9,120 nt of DNA. Origin: Escherichia coli. Its GTDB lineage: Bacteria > Pseudomonadota > Gammaproteobacteria > Enterobacterales > Enterobacteriaceae. Made by a program: the position numbers and the translations under genes. Each line of letters starts with the position of its first letter. Positions within the stretch are counted from its first letter, which is position 1. The stretch is taken from NCBI RefSeq assembly GCF_003334815.1, contig NZ_QOWO01000063.1; one strand, given 5' to 3'. Below are positions 1 through 9,045 of the stretch, one piece after another. Below the pieces are notes generated by a model. It made no database searches, was not told the origin of the DNA, and saw nothing but the letters and a program-made list of their open reading frames with translations.

Positions 1-94
1 AAAAAATCGGCTCAAACATGAAGAAATGAAATGACTGAGTCAGCCGAGAAGAATTTCCCCGCTTATTCGCACCTTCCTTAAACCCGATACGCTT

Positions 95-2860: not shown

Positions 2861-3327
2861 TTAACCTAAAGGTATGAGAACACTGTCGTTTTTCATATAC
2901 AAAGGGTGCTTCGGCTCACCTGTAGCGTTTAAGACGAAGCACATTGTGCTCTCTGGCAATAGCTGTCGGACGGTCGTTGAGCGTTTGAGGTGTCTTCCTT
3001 CATTTCCCCATGCGGCGACAACCAGTCCGGCACCGCTAACAAGACGTATCAAGTGGCTATCGTTATCTTTGCCAATGGGATCAGACGCTTTCATCATTTC
3101 ATGTCGCTGGGTGTGAACGAATGCGAACAGGTTGGCCATGTATACGCCACCGTAGCCCCAGCTTTTGGCAAACGATATGCAGCGGCTCAAGGTGCGATCA
3201 TCCTTCTCAGCATCGGCGTATGAAGGGTTTAGCCCTATGAAAAGGGCATATGGTTTTGATTCGTCCCAGACTCGTGATAACGAGTAGCGATATTGACCGC
3301 ACGGTGAAAAATCGCGTCTTTAATCAT
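2861..3327 (-). pseudogene. DUF1643-family gene interrupted by a frameshift in a homopolymer run (or N-terminally truncated product from TTG 3190)
   Basis: The 2861..3190 ORF translation contains SRCISFAKSWGYGGVYMANLFAF ... VAAWG ... GEPKHPLY, matching the DUF1643 pattern as I remember it. The same frame continues upstream (KPYALFIGLNPSYADAEKDDRTL, also family-typical) to a stop at 3320..3322 with no start codon. An ATG with an AAGGA SD 8 nt upstream sits at 3327..3325 in another frame and terminates after 30 codons. The two frames meet at the A5 run at 3307..3311; adding one base there gives a continuous ORF of about 155 codons. Confidence 0.5.
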
Positions 3328-3398
3328 TTCGGTTGTCCTTATGAAGTGATGGTTTCAGCCTAACATGTCTTTATCCGTTTTAAGCGCCAACAAACGAC

Positions 3399-3499
3399 CG
3401 TTTTCTGGCACCTCCCAATCGCACGCTTTCACACTGTTGGAAAAATAGCCTTGGCTTTTCTGGCAGGCCATCCTAATGTTGGCCTCGTTTTCTGGCAGG
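3399..3499 (+). promoter_or_regulatory. Three direct repeats of TTTTCTGGCA upstream of the serine recombinase (candidate res-like or operator region)
   Basis: Core TTTTCTGGCA at 3401..3410, 3456..3465 and 3488..3497 (flanks cgTTTTCTGGCAcc, gcTTTTCTGGCAgg, cgTTTTCTGGCAgg). A small inverted repeat AGGCCA-N9-TGGCCT lies between copies 2 and 3. The last copy ends about 22 bp before the recombinase ATG. Confidence 0.4.
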
Positions 3500-3519
3500 G
3501 GTCAGATGGGGAGATAACA

Positions 3520-4080
3520 ATGGCAACTTTTGGCTACGGACGTGTTTCGACATCGCAGCAGGATACTGAGAACCAACGGCTGGAGCTTGGGCAGGCTGGG
3601 TGGCAAATTGATTACTGGTTTGCCGATGTTGTTAGCGGGAAGGTTCCGGCAATGCAACGTAAAGCATTTTCTGAAATGCTCAATAAAATCCGCGATGGTG
3701 AAACGTTGGTGGTAGCGAAGCTTGATCGTCTGGGGCGTGATGCGATTGACGTCTTGCAAACGGTAAGGGCGCTGGCTGACCGTAATATCAAGGTTCTTGT
3801 CCACCAGCTTGGTAACACAGATCTCACTTCTGCCGCTGGGAAGTTGCTATTATCTATGCTCGCCGCGGTTGCGGAGATGGAGCGTGATCTGCTGATTGAG
3901 CGCACTCAGGCGGGACTATCACGAGCAAAAGCCGAAGGTAAGAAATTGGGCAGACCTCCTAAAATCGCGTCAGAAGCCCGTAGAGAGATTTTAGAGAAAA
4001 AGAATAGCGGTTTGAGTATCAGTGCGTTAGCGCGTCAATATGGCGTTTCAAGAGCGACTGTAGCAGCTATTACCGATTGA
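3520..4080 (+). CDS. Serine recombinase (resolvase/invertase family)
   Basis: Translation from ATG 3520 (GGGGAGA SD about 6 nt upstream) begins MATFGYGRVSTSQQD with the catalytic Ser motif, then LVVAKLDRLGRD and a C-terminal HTH (GLSISALARQYGVSRATV) after a GRPPK linker. This is the classic small serine recombinase architecture. The ORF-track start at 3451 is an upstream in-frame extension without an RBS. Confidence 0.9.
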   Translation: MATFGYGRVSTSQQDTENQRLELGQAGWQIDYWFADVVSGKVPAMQRKAFSEMLNKIRDGETLVVAKLDRLGRDAIDVLQTVRALADRNIKVLVHQLGNTDLTSAAGKLLLSMLAAVAEMERDLLIERTQAGLSRAKAEGKKLGRPPKIASEARREILEKKNSGLSISALARQYGVSRATVAAITD

Positions 4081-4093
4081 ATATGGAGAGTTT

Positions 4094-4939
4094 ATGGCTT
4101 ACACAGCAACTGTTATCCCTGTAATGATTGCTTCTCCTGGTGATGTCGCTGAAGAGAGACAAGTCATTCGTGAAATGATCCATGAGTGGAATGATATAAA
4201 TTCAGCTCGTTCAAAAGTAATGTTGACACCAATTGGATGGGAAACTCATACATCACCCGAATTAGGAGTTAGGCCTCAGGAGTTGATTAATCAAAGATTA
4301 TTAGTAGATTGTGATTTATTAATCGGTGTGTTTTGGACTCGTCTAGGCTCACCGACTGGGAACGAGGCCAGCGGAACAGTCGAAGAAATCCACCGTCATT
4401 TGAATGCGGGAAAACCGGCAATGATTTACTTTTCCTCAAAGCCTGTTGCCCCTGAAAGCCTTGATAGAGAACAATATGAGTCTCTTAAATTGTTCAAAAC
4501 TGAGTGCATGCAAAAGGGATTGATAGAGTCTTTTAATGACTTATCTGATTTCAAAGAAAAAGTCCGTAGGCAACTTTCGATAATTATTTCTAGTAGCCCT
4601 TATTTGTCTTCTCTTATATCTACCATTAACAATTCTCCTGATGCGAATACAAGTCAATCTTTGCCAGAAAGTAATTTGTCCGCCGATGCACTCAGTTTGC
4701 TGAAATTAGCATGTGTCGATGATAGCGGAACAATTTATGTGATAAGGCATTTAGGTGGCACGGATATTCAAGCGGGAAATCAATCCTTTGGTGGAAGTTC
4801 GGCTAGAGAGGTAGCCCGTTGGGAGGGCGCACTTAACGAACTGTTATCCTTTGATTTTGTGATTGAAAGAGGGGCAAAAGGACAAATGTATTATGTTACT
4901 CATAAAGGCTGGACATTTCTTGAATCTTTAAATGAATAA
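4094..4939 (+). CDS. Hypothetical two-domain cargo protein; N-terminal domain resembles a DUF4062/TIR-like Rossmann-type domain, C-terminal domain unknown
   Basis: ATG 4094 with GGAGAG SD; starts 13 bp after the recombinase stop. The N-terminal segment VMIASPGDVAEERQVI ... LVDCDLLIGVFWTRLGSPTG ... GTVEEIHRHLNAGKPAMIYF fits the strand-helix pattern and conserved acidic/ER and CD motifs I associate with DUF4062-type domains (from memory, unverified). The gene is visibly more AT-rich than the recombinase. Confidence 0.55.
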   Translation: MAYTATVIPVMIASPGDVAEERQVIREMIHEWNDINSARSKVMLTPIGWETHTSPELGVRPQELINQRLLVDCDLLIGVFWTRLGSPTGNEASGTVEEIHRHLNAGKPAMIYFSSKPVAPESLDREQYESLKLFKTECMQKGLIESFNDLSDFKEKVRRQLSIIISSSPYLSSLISTINNSPDANTSQSLPESNLSADALSLLKLACVDDSGTIYVIRHLGGTDIQAGNQSFGGSSAREVARWEGALNELLSFDFVIERGAKGQMYYVTHKGWTFLESLNE

Positions 4940-4999
4940 TTAAATGCGAGGTCATTACATAAGTTTATTTTTGATGTTAGGGTGAATTCCCTCACATTT

Positions 5000-5494
5000 T
5001 TATTCGAAAGAGGCCGCAATGACTTCTCCTGTTTTTGCGTTGAAAACACAAAAGTATTGAAGCGGAGCTAGCATCCCCAAGCTGTTAACTACCTTAGCTT
5101 GTTGCCCAAATGCCTGAATAATCTTCGCGTTCTCATCGTGCCAGAGATAAGTATTAAATACAGGCGCTTCGCTTTCTTGCCACACATGGCGAAACTTCGC
5201 TTTCTCATCCATTACCTTTTTGCACTCCCTGACCGGGTTATGGTGCGTTTTCGCATAGCATTCCGGGTTGTCATCTGCACATACGATATCTTTTCGTGCT
5301 GTCTGATGCTCAGCACCTACAGCAGAAAAGGCGCATACGCCCAGCACCAATGAGAGAGTGCCCAGAGCACCCCATACAGTTGCGCGTAGCGTGCTGATGT
5401 GCTGCTTTGATACAGCATGGGCAACTACACTATAACTGGCCCAGCTAATCGCGGCTCCCGCTGCAATCGGTAATAAAAAGTCTGCTCCCGTCAT
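5000..5494 (-). CDS. Small membrane protein, two predicted TM helices plus a Cys-containing C-terminal domain (hypothetical)
   Basis: ATG at 5494 with GAGGG SD 5 nt upstream on the minus strand. Hydrophobic segments ADFLLPIAAGAAISWASYSVVAHAV and ATVWGALGTLSLVLGVCAFSAVGA are followed by a soluble domain with several Cys. The ORF-track start at 5551 is an extension without an RBS. Confidence 0.6.
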   Translation of the reverse strand: MTGADFLLPIAAGAAISWASYSVVAHAVSKQHISTLRATVWGALGTLSLVLGVCAFSAVGAEHQTARKDIVCADDNPECYAKTHHNPVRECKKVMDEKAKFRHVWQESEAPVFNTYLWHDENAKIIQAFGQQAKVVNSLGMLAPLQYFCVFNAKTGEVIAASFE

Positions 5495-5554
5495 GATTCC
5501 CTCACTTTCCAAACCACATCGCGCCTGATAGCGAACGCTGGTGACGCCCAACCG

Positions 5555-5568
5555 ATGATGATCATCAT
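5555..5568. promoter_or_regulatory. Perfect 14-bp palindrome ATGATGATCATCAT in the divergent intergenic region (candidate operator)
   Basis: Read directly; self-complementary across the 5561/5562 centre. It sits about 60 bp upstream of the membrane-protein start and about 165 bp upstream of the XRE regulator start. Confidence 0.4.
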
Positions 5569-5734
5569 ACTTGTTGGGTTTTAAATGTCACCATTGGTGT
5601 TTGTTTTGAATCAAAAAGGATTGTCATGATACAGCCGATGAATGCTAGTGACTAAGCTCGCTGAAGTGAGATTGGATTCAAAATATCTCATATGGAGCGT
5701 GGCCTTACAGTGGTCAAAATTGCACATTCAGTGC

Positions 5735-6199
5735 ATGAAAAAATCCCTGAGAATACAGTTTGGCGAGCGGGTAAAAGAACTGCGCATTGCCACCGGATTG
5801 AGCCAAGAGGCCTTTGCCGATCGGTGCGGGTTTGCACGTAGTTATATGAGCAGAATTGAACGTGGTGGCTCTAATGCGTCTCTGGATGCGATTGAGGTGC
5901 TGGCTAACGCTCTGAGCGTTGAGCCGTGGCAGTTGTTAGCGCCTGGCCCATCTGAAGATAACGACTCGGAACTGTTGGTTCCATACGCAGCCGATGGTTC
6001 CTGTTTTCACCCCGGTTTGGCGAGCACCCGTGATGGTTCGTTTGGCGTAGGTGATAAAGCGGCTCAGAAGCGTTTTGGCACGTTTGCTGAAGCTCTTGAG
6101 TATCTTCGTAGCATGGAGACAGCAAAATGGCGTAGGCCTAATCCTAGCGGCAACTGGGGTATCGTATCAGCGGTTCGGTGGGACAAACTGAGAAAGTAG
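5735..6199 (+). CDS. XRE-family (Cro/cI-type) helix-turn-helix transcriptional regulator with an uncharacterised C-terminal domain
   Basis: MKKSLRIQFGERVKELRIATGLSQEAFADRCGFARSYMSRIERGGSNASLDAIEVLANALSVEPWQLL is a textbook XRE HTH. The start was chosen at ATG 5735 because the HTH then sits at the N-terminus; no good SD at either 5735 or the ORF-track start 5642, so the start is uncertain. Confidence 0.75.
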   Translation: MKKSLRIQFGERVKELRIATGLSQEAFADRCGFARSYMSRIERGGSNASLDAIEVLANALSVEPWQLLAPGPSEDNDSELLVPYAADGSCFHPGLASTRDGSFGVGDKAAQKRFGTFAEALEYLRSMETAKWRRPNPSGNWGIVSAVRWDKLRK

Positions 6200-6678
6200 C
6201 TCAAGTGTAAGTTTATGAATTTTTATGCTGTATGGATGAACAGTATTCATTAGATGCTGATAGTCTTATGTTTCATCAGCCCTTTGTTTCTATAAGAGTG
6301 AATAAAACAGCAAAATGCGGGTGCGTTACGGTGGCGTTTCGCTTTGGCTCTTAATGGCTTAATTCATATAAATAACATTGAGTTAAATAGTTATTCTGAA
6401 CAAGGTCTGCCGGGGTCTAACTGGTTTCAAAATCCGAACGCAGTGGCGTTTATTCAACGTCCACATAGCTGACAAATGTTCTTTCCTCCCGACTCGGCAG
6501 ACCTCCAGAAACATTAAAAGGCAGGTATGGCACGTTGATGTTTTATGCCGCCACGAACACTCGGTTTGATTCCGTCCAGCGGATCAAACTTAATATGTAG
6601 CCCCTAGAACAAAAAGGTCCTACGATTGCTCTCTTAACAGCTAACAGGAACGTGATTACAGCAGGTTATAGAGACTTA

Positions 6679-6703
6679 GGTTCGAGTCCGGCCTTCGGTA
6701 CCA
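6679..6703 (+). repeat. tRNA-Leu 3'-end-like sequence (T-loop, acceptor 3' strand and CCA): candidate att direct repeat / island junction
   Basis: GGTTCGAGTCCGGCCTTCGGTACCA matches the 3' end of enterobacterial tRNA-Leu(CAA) (leuX type, recalled as ...CCGGTTCGAGTCCGGCCTTCGGCACCA) with one mismatch. The upstream sequence cannot form the rest of a cloverleaf (the T-stem 5' strand is TTAGG, not GCCGG), so this is a 3' fragment, not a gene. Confidence 0.55.
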
Positions 6704-7236
6704 AGTTACTAAATTCCTTACAATACAGTTAGTTAGACGATTAAATCTGTCTCTTTTGCCTGTAAGAAATGCTCTGTTATGTCCCTTGAAAAAGCCGCTG
6801 TGGTTGATAGTGGTAATTGGGATGTTAACTCATAGCGGCGTGTCGTTCCAAGCGTCAAACACGTACTGACTCAACTTGAAAGCTATGACGTAGCCACCGT
6901 CTCTAAACAATCCCAAAACTTTTAGTGCAGCGCATTTTAGCCCGATGCCCCCATTCTGTCGCCGTCGCGAGACGCCGCAGGGGATAAACAGGTTTATGGT
7001 GGTCACGGTACTTGCAGACCATATGCAAGCTCTGCCAGCGGTTCGGCCTCGCTCCCCTTGGGTACATGGTCATCCTGATAAGCCTCACTAACTGACATAA
7101 CCCTGATGAAGTCGCAAGAGGCTCCGCTTGTTGTCTTACCACCAACGGGGCTTTATGGATTCTATTGCTTAATATATGATTGTATCAAACTTAGACTGCA
7201 TAATTTAAACGAACATAACAATCAGGCAGGGGAAGA

Positions 7237-8061
7237 ATGATAAAGCCATTTTCTGTGAGGTATGGTCATGTTGACGTTAGAGAGCATGTCCAGCTGAATG
7301 ATCTTAATTCTGATACACGCATGGCATTGTGGAATTGCTTATATCTTTTCCTTTGGACTAACAATCGTCAAACTGCTACAGCAACAAAATGTGCGCAGTC
7401 TGTGTGGATATATTATCTAAATCAACCTGCGGATAATATTCCTCGTTATGAAAGTGGATACAAAAGTGATAAGACGTTGCTGACTGCTATCCGAGATTAT
7501 ATATATGGGGAAGCATGGTATTTGGTATATGATTTAATTGAGTTCATCATTGAGAGAACTAATTCATATATTAATCTATCGAAGCATCTCAATTCCATCT
7601 TTAAAAAGCATGGCGTTGGTTATACCATAATAAATGGTTGTATTACTCCTATTTCAAATGATAACGAAATTGAAAGTGTTCAGAACGCAGTTGATAATGG
7701 CACTGATTCATCGCGTAGCCATTTCGAAAGGGCGTTACAACTAATGACGGATAGAGAGCAGCCAGACTACAGAAACTCGATTAAAGAGTCTATCTCTGCA
7801 ATTGAATCTTTATGCAGGAAAATCACGGGCAATGATAAAGGAACCTTGGGGGCTTGTCTTAAAGCTATAGAGGAAAAAGGATATATACACTCTGCAATGA
7901 AAGGCGCTTTTAGTCAGCTCTATGGTTATACAAGTGATCAGGGTGGAATACGTCATGCGCTAACAGAAGAAGATGTAAATCCTACCTTAGCTGAAGCTAA
8001 ATTTATGTTAGTCACTTGCAGTGCGTTCAGTAATTATCTGTTGTCAAAAATAAGTGATTAA
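7237..8061 (+). CDS. AbiJ-like abortive-infection protein (AbiJ N-terminal-type domain plus C-terminal HEPN-like domain), putative
   Basis: ATG 7237 with GGGGAAG SD. The N-terminus FSVRYGHVDVREHVQLNDL ... RMALWNCLY fits the FS-x-R-x-G ... LWN pattern I associate with AbiJ N-terminal domains. The C-terminal part has PDYRNSIKESISAIESL ... GYTSDQGGIRHALTEED ... AKFMLVTCSAF, typical of the linked HEPN-type domain. Family assignment is from memory, not a search. The gene is strongly AT-rich. Confidence 0.5.
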   Translation: MIKPFSVRYGHVDVREHVQLNDLNSDTRMALWNCLYLFLWTNNRQTATATKCAQSVWIYYLNQPADNIPRYESGYKSDKTLLTAIRDYIYGEAWYLVYDLIEFIIERTNSYINLSKHLNSIFKKHGVGYTIINGCITPISNDNEIESVQNAVDNGTDSSRSHFERALQLMTDREQPDYRNSIKESISAIESLCRKITGNDKGTLGACLKAIEEKGYIHSAMKGAFSQLYGYTSDQGGIRHALTEEDVNPTLAEAKFMLVTCSAFSNYLLSKISD

Positions 8062-8079: not shown

Positions 8080-8114
8080 GAGTGGGTTAGTTACCCACTC
8101 CCTTTAAAATTATT
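8080..8114. terminator. Candidate bidirectional terminator between convergent genes
   Basis: Perfect 8-bp stem GAGTGGGT / ACCCACTC (8080..8087 and 8093..8100, 5-nt loop) followed by CCTTTAAAATTATT; lies between the stop of 7237..8061 and the stop of the 8110..8682 minus-strand gene. Confidence 0.4.
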
Positions 8115-8682
8115 CACCAGACTCTAATCTTTTTTCTCTTTTCTCATCTCTCCTTTTTATTGCCAAATCGTGTTGCTCTTGCAGATACGTGCGTTCTTCG
8201 TTTCTATCGCTTGAAGTATATACGTCTGCTTTTACTTTTTTAGCTCCTTGTGCAATAGGTTTCCAATCCTCTCTTATACCTTTAATTTGTTCTGCAATTT
8301 GCGTCAATGGGCTTCTCGCTCCTAGATAACTTATTCCTTCAAATGTCGCCATGTCATACACATATTCATTTGTTTCTCTATCGTTTGATTTAGGTTTGCT
8401 TGCCCAGCTTATATTAATATTATAAATTTGATCTTTGATTTGTTCATACTTACAGAGATTGCTGGTAAGTGATTGCCCATTTTTTAACACGCTTACCTTA
8501 CTAAACGGAATCTCACTTTTTTCTCTATGCTCCGCATTTACTAGTGGAGGATCAAACACAACCTCAACATTATAGGCAGGTGCGTTCCCTGTATTAGCAA
8601 TGTTAATATCAAAGTAAAAAGCGGCCCAAGGGTTTGGCTCAAGTGTTACAACTATATGGGGTTGAGCTGATGCGTCAACCAT
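8110..8682 (-). CDS. Hypothetical protein (AT-rich cargo gene, no recognisable family)
   Basis: Start assigned to ATG 8682..8680 (MVDASAQPHIVVTLEP...). The ORF-track extension to 8736 would run into the IS terminal repeat and is therefore unlikely to be native. The C-terminal tail is Lys/Arg/Glu-rich. Confidence 0.5.
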   Translation of the reverse strand: MVDASAQPHIVVTLEPNPWAAFYFDINIANTGNAPAYNVEVVFDPPLVNAEHREKSEIPFSKVSVLKNGQSLTSNLCKYEQIKDQIYNINISWASKPKSNDRETNEYVYDMATFEGISYLGARSPLTQIAEQIKGIREDWKPIAQGAKKVKADVYTSSDRNEERTYLQEQHDLAIKRRDEKREKRLESGE

Positions 8683-8710
8683 TCTTTTTGTCTCGTCTGC
8701 TCTGAAGTGG

Positions 8711-9045
8711 TGAAGTGGTTTACTGAATTTGGCCACCTGAACAGAGGTGATATGCTCACCTCAGAACAACACAGGTGCTCCAATGAAAAAAAGAAATTTT
8801 AGCGCAGAGTTTAAACGCGAATCCGCTCAACTGGTTGTTGACCAGACATACACGGTGGCAGATGCCGCCAAAGCTATGGATGTTGGCCTTTCCACAATGA
8901 CAAGATGGGTCAAACAACTGCGTGATGAGCGTCAGGGCAAAACACCAAAAGCCTCTCCGATAACACCAGAACAAATCGAAATACGTAAGCTGAGGAAAAA
9001 GCTACAACGCATTGAAATGGAGAATGAAATATTAAAAAAGGCTAC
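8711..9045 (+). mobile_element. IS3-family insertion sequence (IS911-like), left end with terminal inverted repeat and orfA; truncated/interrupted at 9045
   Basis: The terminus TGAAGTGGTTTACTGAATTTGGCCACC begins with the TGAAGTGG...GGCCACC pattern I recall for IS911 ends, and the downstream sequence encodes an IS911-type OrfA. An extra TGAAGTGG copy sits immediately upstream at 8703..8710. Confidence 0.75.
8783..9045 (+). CDS. IS3-family (IS911-like) transposase OrfA (HTH/leucine-zipper N-terminal protein), 3' end disrupted by insertion
   Basis: Translation [88 protein letters not shown] is near-identical to IS911 OrfA as I remember it. After codon T (9044..9046) the reading frame continues into unrelated sequence. 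Confidence 0.8.

Follow-up and report, generated by a model that had tools for sequence, protein, structure and literature searches.

A stretch of 9,120 nucleotides of Escherichia coli DNA (contig NZ_QOWO01000063.1 of RefSeq assembly GCF_003334815.1, hereafter the window) raises the question of whether two closely spaced genes, one for a small serine recombinase (3520-4080) and one, AT-rich, for a protein of 281 amino acids (aa) (4094-4939), work together. An initial annotation, made from the sequence alone, had proposed that they form a recombinase-associated defence or addiction module unlike any described system. The analysis presented here leads to another answer for the pair and a more definite one for the second gene, which we consider likely to encode a self-contained, single-protein anti-phage sensor-effector built on DUF4062, a TIR-like domain that hydrolyses nicotinamide adenine dinucleotide (NAD+; such enzymes are NADases), and to be island cargo independent of the recombinase. 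The locus does not represent a new recombinase-linked system; linkage to the recombinase is a property of one island family. The features on which the argument rests, in window positions, are the following.

3399..3497, + strand: recombinase 5' region with three exact direct copies of TTTTCTGGCA at 3401, 3456 and 3488; left edge of a hypervariable block
3520..4080, + strand: serine recombinase of the resolvase/invertase type, 186 aa, from the ATG at 3520 to the stop at 4080
4068..4999: cargo insertion relative to islands that lack the DUF4062 gene, mapped by blastn against strain ES7
4081..4093, + strand: 13-bp spacer with the Shine-Dalgarno sequence GGAGAG at 4085-4090, read from the sequence
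4094..4939, + strand: AT-rich DUF4062 gene, 281 aa, protein accession WP_000331917.1, from the list of open reading frames (ORFs) and the translation
4094..4588, + strand: DUF4062 TIR-like effector domain, aa 1-165 (Pfam, PADLOC, AlphaFold2, Foldseek)
4238-4243, + strand: W49-E50 motif, read from the alignment
4382-4387, + strand: candidate catalytic pair E97-E98, invariant residues
4541..4678, + strand: helical stalk (aa 150-179) and variable disordered linker (aa 180-195), from the AlphaFold2 model
4679..4939, + strand: C-terminal auxiliary domain, the putative sensor, aa 196-281, stop codon included (domain model, fold search)

The ORF coordinates, the 13-bp gap, the Shine-Dalgarno sequence of the downstream gene and its higher AT content were all as first described. 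GGAGAG lies 3-8 bases 5' of the second ATG (4094), and a longer recombinase ORF with a TTG start opens at 3451. The GC content of the 281-aa gene is 0.401, against 0.503 for the recombinase gene, 0.495 for the convergent gene that follows and 0.509 for the helix-turn-helix (HTH) gene after that. A consensus scan of the spacer turned up no terminator-like or promoter-like site, so co-transcription is plausible, and the recombinase promoter probably transcribes the 281-aa gene. An Rfam scan of the window returned no RNA family. As a side observation, the 281-aa protein shares its 90%-identity cluster with 186-aa entries named 'recombinase family protein', probably a clustering artefact produced by read-through or fused calls across the spacer.

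The N-terminal half of the protein is where its kinship can be read. The Pfam family DUF4062 (PF13271) matches aa 10-99 (E=3e-4) and is found precomputed on many homologues, and PADLOC aligns aa 8-167 with positions 5-169 of the candidate profile PDC-S60 (E=6e-27). An AlphaFold2 model built on 45 homologues, with a mean predicted local distance difference test score (pLDDT) of 81.8, places a five-stranded beta/alpha domain at aa 1-147, its parallel strands at 6-13, 42-48, 75-80, 109-114 and 144-147 with helices between them, followed by helices at 150-167 and 169-179, a segment of pLDDT <50 at 180-191 and a compact C-terminal domain at aa 197-281. Searched against the PDB with Foldseek, the model matches plant TIR domains (L6, RRS1) and nucleoside 2-deoxyribosyltransferases (E 3e-4 to 5e-3), and also flavodoxin-like folds; against AFDB50, 47 of the top 50 matches are named 'DUF4062 domain-containing protein' and come from many phyla, and no other family name occurs among the 50. 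Structure prediction and fold search thus found in the N-terminal domain the TIR/DUF4062-like fold that the initial annotation had suggested, and its identity stands; its extent does not, the domain covering about 165 residues by PADLOC and AlphaFold2 where about 115 had been proposed. In the PDB, neither the single sequence nor a profile brought up a solved structure or a sequence relative. A phage-structural identity was rejected, there being no homologue in 50,697 phage genomes and no match in PHROGs, and membership of a housekeeping family was rejected on the lack of any NCBIfam match.

Invariant in 45 diverse members of the family are D17, R22, R26, W49, P55-E56-L57-G58 (part of the SPELG motif), F80-W81-T82-R83 (FWTR), S93-G94-T95, E97-E98, H102 and Y112-F113. 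The pairs W49-E50 and E97/E98 were equated by motif order, not by residue-level structural superposition, with W51-E52/E87 of Eva01 and E97 of KpSwz, two DUF4062 defence proteins discussed below. The C-terminal stretch of about 90 residues, which had earlier matched nothing that could be named, proved to have a confident fold when modelled alone (pLDDT 91.3) and to be winged-helix-like, although its fold matches are weak: the best PDB neighbours are the winged-helix proteins TubR, SSV1/STIV F93, ribosomal eS10 and a MarR-type regulator, at template modelling (TM) scores of 0.5-0.6 and E>0.1. Profile matches to HTH_45, RQC and MUS81-WH are sub-threshold, as is the winged-helix hint that Pfam gives at aa 247-281. 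From the model, we take the domain to be a derived winged helix into which a three-stranded sheet has been inserted. Its isoelectric point (pI) is 4.85 and the family median 5.3, an acidity that argues against a classical DNA-binding role.

This two-domain protein belongs to a very large family. A word-indexed search recovered 2,179 relatives, nearly all close to 282 aa long with a full-length identity of about 55%, in many proteobacteria and beyond, and an exhaustive search of 50%-identity representatives gave 9,483 clusters at E<=1e-3, of which 1,239 reached E<=1e-30; the full-length, two-domain layout is kept in nearly all of the top 150 clusters. Conservation within the family is 0.83 over aa 1-120 and 0.68 over the C-terminal domain, and falls to its lowest value, 0.34, in the linker. 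Searching for fusions with the auxiliary domain (AUX) alone returned only fragments of the same family, mostly ORFs that begin at the internal Met110, together with a few stand-alone AUX proteins. A few full-length homologues are plasmid-borne, including those of Caulobacter and Synechococcus elongatus. One homologue of the N-terminal domain, on 'plasmid 2' of Salmonella Senftenberg NCTC10384 (positions 5001-5573 of locus L103; 49% identity; motifs FWTR...SGTVEE), stands at the end of a phage-like head/terminase gene block and is cut after about 190 aa by the insertion sequence (IS) IS3; considered as a bridge to the lineage of KpSwz, it was rejected, being an IS3-truncated member of the same N-domain clade as the 281-aa protein.

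The gene also appears to stand alone. With the family profile, 80 loci from 80 species were fetched and their ORFs within 3 kb of the DUF4062 gene were clustered all-against-all; no neighbour family occurred in more than six of the 80. A type II toxin-antitoxin arrangement was rejected on the same sample, which holds no conserved small adjacent antitoxin gene, and no conserved neighbour was seen either in the loci of Stutzerimonas, Kangiella, Iodobacter, a metagenome-assembled genome (MAG) of Rhodanobacteraceae, and Desulfomicrobium. The family is patchy across phyla, and its neighbourhoods are hypervariable and rich in defence genes. In examined loci the homologues adjoin HEPN and patatin genes, ThsB-TIR and HNH genes beside a prophage, or AbiTii and BstA, or lie inside a type I restriction-modification (R-M) locus. 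In a further sample of 15 loci, in which the two largest neighbours of each were run through PADLOC, six gave strong matches: Lamassu LmuB with PD-Lambda-1, PifA, a CBASS cyclase, SIR2/PDC-S65, 'Hydrolase', and mad3-like ATPases. The neighbourhood comparison thus came out differently for the two things proposed of the gene: defence-gene neighbours are often present, and linkage to the recombinase is confined to one island family. A conflict or defence role, supported by these neighbourhoods and by the DUF4062 literature, is the best reading of the gene.

A further pattern that bears on function comes from natural variation. A second DUF4062 allele, 65% identical, fills the same island slot in E. 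coli and relatives, and identity between the alleles is 88-92% over aa 1-120, about 50% over aa 121-165, about 23% over the linker and 40-58% over the putative sensor domain, aa 196-281. Nonsynonymous divergence (dN) is 0.07 for aa 1-120 versus 0.42 for the sensor domain, with synonymous sites saturated throughout. On these comparisons strong purifying selection acts on the effector, whereas divergence is far greater in the sensor, an allelic pattern that fits a conserved effector coupled to a putative diversifying sensor.

Single-gene DUF4062 defence proteins were described in 2026, which makes the earlier view of the gene as part of no described system outdated. In the Swarozyc study, DUF4062 was identified as a TIR-like NADase (Osinski et al., bioRxiv 2026, doi 10.64898/2026.05.01.722283). 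In KpSwz of Klebsiella pneumoniae, a single-gene system, DUF4062 is followed by an intertwined helical stalk and then by an auxiliary domain of the HTH/winged type. This last domain binds the portal protein of the phage; binding switches on NAD+ hydrolysis, which requires E97 and ends in abortive infection. The products of DUF4062 enzymes are only ADP-ribose and nicotinamide, with no cyclic signals, and an E. coli protein, UPI0002A39D72, was among those tested (Osinski et al. 2026). In common with Swarozyc, the 281-aa protein begins with a TIR-like DUF4062 domain (about 164 residues) that has a candidate catalytic Glu, continues with a short strand and a helical stalk, ends in an HTH/winged auxiliary domain with beta-hairpins, and is set in Enterobacteriaceae defence islands. 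KpSwz is deposited as WP_202404386/WP_341800075, and its numbering holds a 14-15-residue N-terminal annotation extension; unlike in the 281-aa protein, its Glu, once corrected for that extension, falls about 15 residues earlier than E97/E98, and we therefore place an insertion in the clade of the 281-aa protein around the loop at aa 50-62.

The Evangelion proteins Eva01-Eva04, likewise single-gene, combine a conserved DUF4062 core (motifs F11, W/E and E87-Y88) with a diversified AUX and are associated with NAD+ depletion (Ibarra-Chavez et al., bioRxiv 2026, doi 10.64898/2026.06.25.731849). Defence by Eva01 requires the DUF4062 Glu and the AUX region, and the protein lowers NAD+ and binds DNA substrates (Ibarra-Chavez et al. 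2026). The present protein resembles them in its conserved core and diversified AUX, in being carried on a mobile element, and in possessing the W/E motif and the catalytic Glu region. Eva01, however, is plasmid-borne in Staphylococcus, and its AUX is of a different fold that binds recombination-like DNA, whereas the 281-aa protein is chromosomal, island-borne and equipped with an acidic winged-helix AUX; the motifs F11 and E87-Y88 of Eva01 correspond in it to I12/A13 and E98-I99. The PADLOC candidate PDC-S60 strongly resembles the protein in its N-terminal ~165 residues, which match aa 8-167, but its profile of 906 positions is matched only at 5-169, and the two thus have the same effector domain in different architectures. 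In Thoeris ThsB, TIR-STING and SARM1-type NADases, rearrangement of an oligomer activates the enzyme, and consumption of NAD+ leads to abortive infection. With such canonical TIR defence effectors the 281-aa protein has in common the flavodoxin-like beta/alpha fold, the catalytic Glu and the fold matches to the TIR domains of L6 and RRS1; it differs in that sequence similarity is marginal and no signalling partner such as ThsA is encoded nearby.

In the mechanism that we infer from these likenesses, the effector (aa 1-165) would hydrolyse NAD+ by means of the invariant pair E97/E98, as judged by homology. At rest it would probably be inactive within an oligomer, and the loop at aa 50-58, conserved but modelled poorly, is a candidate for its lid. 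The helical stalk (aa 150-179) would couple the effector to the winged-helix-like domain (aa 196-281), a putative fast-evolving sensor that, because it is acidic, would most likely recognise a phage protein and not DNA. Binding of the trigger would activate the NADase, and depletion of NAD+ would abort the infection. The cargo gene is inserted just 3' of the recombinase stop codon, and the recombinase would not be needed for defence. If this is true, about 7% of complete E. coli genomes, including the probiotic Nissle 1917 and the reference strain ATCC 25922, carry a clade of DUF4062 NADase immune proteins, and that clade is very large (thousands of 50%-identity clusters, many phyla) and has a winged-helix sensor of its own. 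The natural alleles, with a conserved effector and a diverged sensor in the same slot, would offer a ready-made system for studying the evolution of trigger specificity.

Several observations weigh against this account. The Pfam match to DUF4062 (E=3e-4) and the fold matches of the C-terminal domain (E>0.1) are weak, and the literature gave no biochemical or phage-challenge data on the 281-aa protein or its clade. The published KpSwz residue pattern (D16, R18, D71, E97, W176, W238 and Y239) is absent from all 298 fetched homologues, by a scan at offsets of -20 to +20 that required at least five of the seven residues. Relative to Eva01 and KpSwz the clade has an insertion of about 11-15 residues before the catalytic Glu, and E-I replaces E-Y. 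Judged by the published residue pattern, it is probably a different lineage from KpSwz, and the trigger, even the product, could therefore differ. Some homologues, as in Kangiella, lie among housekeeping genes, and conservation of the junction between recombinase and DUF4062 gene in diverged enterobacterial versions (see below) leaves room for a logic of co-expression with the recombinase. From sequence and models, the 281-aa protein is best described as a new, apparently untried member, and perhaps a distinct subtype, of the DUF4062 defence kind described in 2026.

What, then, is the recombinase doing next to this gene? By its profile matches it is an intact small serine recombinase: Pfam assigns Resolvase (E=1e-36) and a C-terminal HTH_7 (E=2e-5), the protein aligns with gamma-delta resolvase at E=1e-25, over a stretch that includes the catalytic Ser10 motif GYGRVSTSQQ, and with Gin invertase at E=6e-23, and its PHROG match is 'DNA invertase' (E=1e-55). 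It stands upstream of the DUF4062 gene in three of the 80 species loci, all from Enterobacteriaceae and the same island family; in three more loci, resolvases that are unrelated to it lie no more than a few kb away. One of the three recombinase-linked loci is a mislabelled contig of a 'Collinsella sp.' MAG (JAIJJM010000048.1, 9.9 kb; locus L022), all of whose genes are 100% identical at the protein level to those of the E. coli island; it is most likely E. coli contamination of the MAG. The recombinase occurs in 454 E. coli genomes, about 15 of them, by subtraction, without the DUF4062 gene, and five such genomes were inspected. Strains ES7 (positions 6587-10686 of locus L017) and NU14 (L019) have a related island at tRNA-Thr in which the recombinase has no DUF4062 gene and nothing to its right, and a complete Gabija system to its left (GajA, E=2e-281; GajB, E=2e-235). 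The islands of CX05, at tRNA-Gly, and PapM-32-1 also have the recombinase without the DUF4062 gene, and in E. coli O157:H7 SS52 two other genes replace the latter beside the recombinase. Blastn delimits the difference: against ES7, 3392-4067 and 5000-6222 align and 4068-4999 does not, ES7 having 167 bp there, and against O157 SS52 the segment 4077-5674 is replaced. Because its absence or replacement in related islands can be mapped in this way, the DUF4062 gene is a discrete cargo insertion beside a backbone recombinase. The suggestion that the AT-rich gene was captured as cargo next to the recombinase was thereby borne out, exactly 4068-4999 being absent or replaced; that the pair forms a functional recombinase-associated or addiction module was not, given three paired loci in 80, no conserved neighbour and five islands in which the recombinase lacks the gene. 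On these comparisons the recombinase is a gene of the island backbone and not a functional partner of the DUF4062 gene.

The setting of the pair is more variable than that of its flanks. In a sliding comparison with the island that carries the second allele, identity is 97-100% along the backbone and falls to 42-85% in a block, 3378-5177, that takes in the upstream repeats, both genes of the pair and the 3' end of the convergent gene; synonymous sites in the block are saturated. The left edge of the block is the same as the start of the ES7 homology and the identity drop in O157. The repeat region is kept in all island variants, at three different tRNA sites, and the ES7 homology starts exactly there; at <=1 mismatch, TTTTCTGGCA matches the window five times, against 1.15 expected. 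By inference, the repeats at 3399-3497 could be a regulatory or res-like site. Breakpoints recur at ~3392 (the first TTTTCTGGCA repeat) and at 4067-4076 (the last recombinase codons). A search of the cargo junctions for a repeated site, a target duplication or an att-like sequence found none. An invertible segment was also considered and rejected: the inverted repeats present (4068-4088/5455-5475 and others) are short, imperfect and at chance level, and no inversion polymorphism appeared in the 384 genomes in which one place covers >=80% of 3399-4939.

Against this background three other explanations can be weighed. That recombinase and DUF4062 gene form one two-gene module, in which the recombinase switches, regulates or mobilises the effector or the two make an addiction pair, we regard as very improbable. 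The 13-bp spacer without terminator or promoter speaks for it, as does the junction of stop codon, 13 bp and ATG (TATGGAGA), which is kept in four enterobacterial versions despite otherwise diverged flanking genes; recombinase and gene, moreover, co-diverge as one block inside a near-identical backbone, and in Citrobacter and one other Enterobacteriaceae genome the pair is found again together with divergent integrases of 36-47% identity. Yet the gene does without this recombinase in 77 of the 80 species and has no antitoxin-like or other conserved neighbour, at least five variants of the E. coli island have the recombinase and not the gene, and neither conserved inverted repeats around an invertible segment nor inversion in the population accompany the pair. 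Nor are we inclined to credit the recombinase, as a capture or exchange enzyme, with inserting, deleting and swapping adjoining cassettes of which the DUF4062 gene would be one. Cargo does vary on both of its sides (to the left Gabija or DUF1643; to the right DUF4062, a pair of unknown genes, or no gene at all), the breakpoints recur, and the upstream repeats are conserved. The junctions, however, carry none of the sites that were sought, the right breakpoint falls inside the recombinase coding sequence, and the paired res or hix sites that small resolvase/invertase-type enzymes normally use were not found; homologous recombination in conserved flanks, with diversifying selection on defence cargo, explains the pattern equally. 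For the hypervariable block itself, homologous recombination and diversifying selection are a likelier cause than recombinase-driven exchange, and it is doubtful that recombinase and TTTTCTGGCA repeats are the engine of a cargo-exchange hotspot, or cassette-capture device, in small enterobacterial tRNA islands.

The third explanation gives the 281-aa protein a non-immune role, in housekeeping or maintenance of the element, as a nucleoside 2-deoxyribosyltransferase-like enzyme or a winged-helix DNA-binding regulator. The Foldseek matches to nucleoside 2-deoxyribosyltransferases and flavodoxin-like folds would agree with it, as would the resemblance of the C-terminus to the DNA-binding winged helices TubR, F93 and MarR, the place of the Kangiella gene among housekeeping genes and the binding of DNA substrates by Eva01 (Ibarra-Chavez et al. 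2026). It is nonetheless an unlikely explanation, in that no NCBIfam, PHROG or characterised housekeeping family matches the protein, its relatives are scattered patchily across phyla in hypervariable, defence-rich neighbourhoods, the AUX is acidic (median pI 5.3), and the closest characterised relatives are defence NADases. The reading of the gene as a single-protein sensor-effector, carried as cargo, is the one that we prefer.

The wider setting of this cargo is the E. coli leuX island. The sequence 3399-4939 is 100% identical in the chromosomes of E. coli Nissle 1917 and ATCC 25922, and the 1.5-kb stretch is present at >=99% identity in 392 of 5,426 complete E. coli genomes. In Nissle 1917 the order is tRNA-Leu (leuX), a 636-aa integrase, NIPSNAP (- strand), DUF1643 (- strand, frameshifted), the recombinase, the 281-aa 'hypothetical protein', a 165-aa 'membrane protein' (- strand) and an XRE-type HTH gene, beyond which come an AbiJ-NTD4 gene, a hypothetical gene, IS elements and the fec operon. 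The right end of the first element and two genes of the second are the following.

6679..6704, + strand: attR, a 25-nt direct repeat of the tRNA-Leu (leuX) 3' end, GGTTCGAGTCCGGCCTTCGGtACCA, matching the tRNA 3' end
7237-8061: AbiJ-NTD4 gene, PADLOC candidate PDC-S32 (E=6e-104), 2.3 kb from the DUF4062 gene
8110-8736: convergent 208-aa gene, phrog_11802 (E=7e-86)

Homology to other island versions stops at 6679-6704, and in some genomes that lack the first element (H55) the segment 6679-9120 lies directly at tRNA-Leu. Because of the tRNA repeat, the end of homology and the H55 arrangement, the pair can be placed in an integrative element of about 7 kb bounded by attL and attR, with a second module in tandem. 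The backbone of this element runs from the integrase through NIPSNAP, DUF1643, the recombinase, the cargo position, the 165-aa gene and the XRE-type HTH gene to attR. In the source strain it is probably immobilised: window positions 1-77 are the end of an IS5 element (...TTATTCGCACCTTCC) that cuts the island's 636-aa integrase, whose remnant is the C-terminal 431 aa (ORF 95-1390). The DUF1643 gene (2861-3330) is frameshifted, with an ORF of 109 aa against 155 aa when intact; in Nissle 1917 its annotation is that of a pseudogene. Two related 24-nt palindromic sequences, CTGCGTTCATATTCTGAACGCAGT (2829-2852) and CTGGTTTCAAAATCCGAACGCAGT (6421-6444), bracket the segment from DUF1643 to the HTH gene; the first lies just 3' of DUF1643 and is missing from variants without that gene.

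In its overall plan the island resembles the small, integrase-borne islands for defence that occupy E. coli tRNA hotspots (leuX, thrW, glyU): a tyrosine integrase adjoins the tRNA, whose 3' end recurs as a direct repeat, and the defence cargo among the conserved backbone genes varies (Gabija, AbiJ-like, type I R-M). Unlike them, the present family has an extra conserved serine recombinase centred in the variable region. Downstream, further island versions have a gene for a type I restriction enzyme or McrA-like genes. The AbiJ-NTD4 gene of the second module and its 208-aa neighbour are both AT-rich (GC 0.37-0.38), and together they make up a second candidate defence locus of the window.

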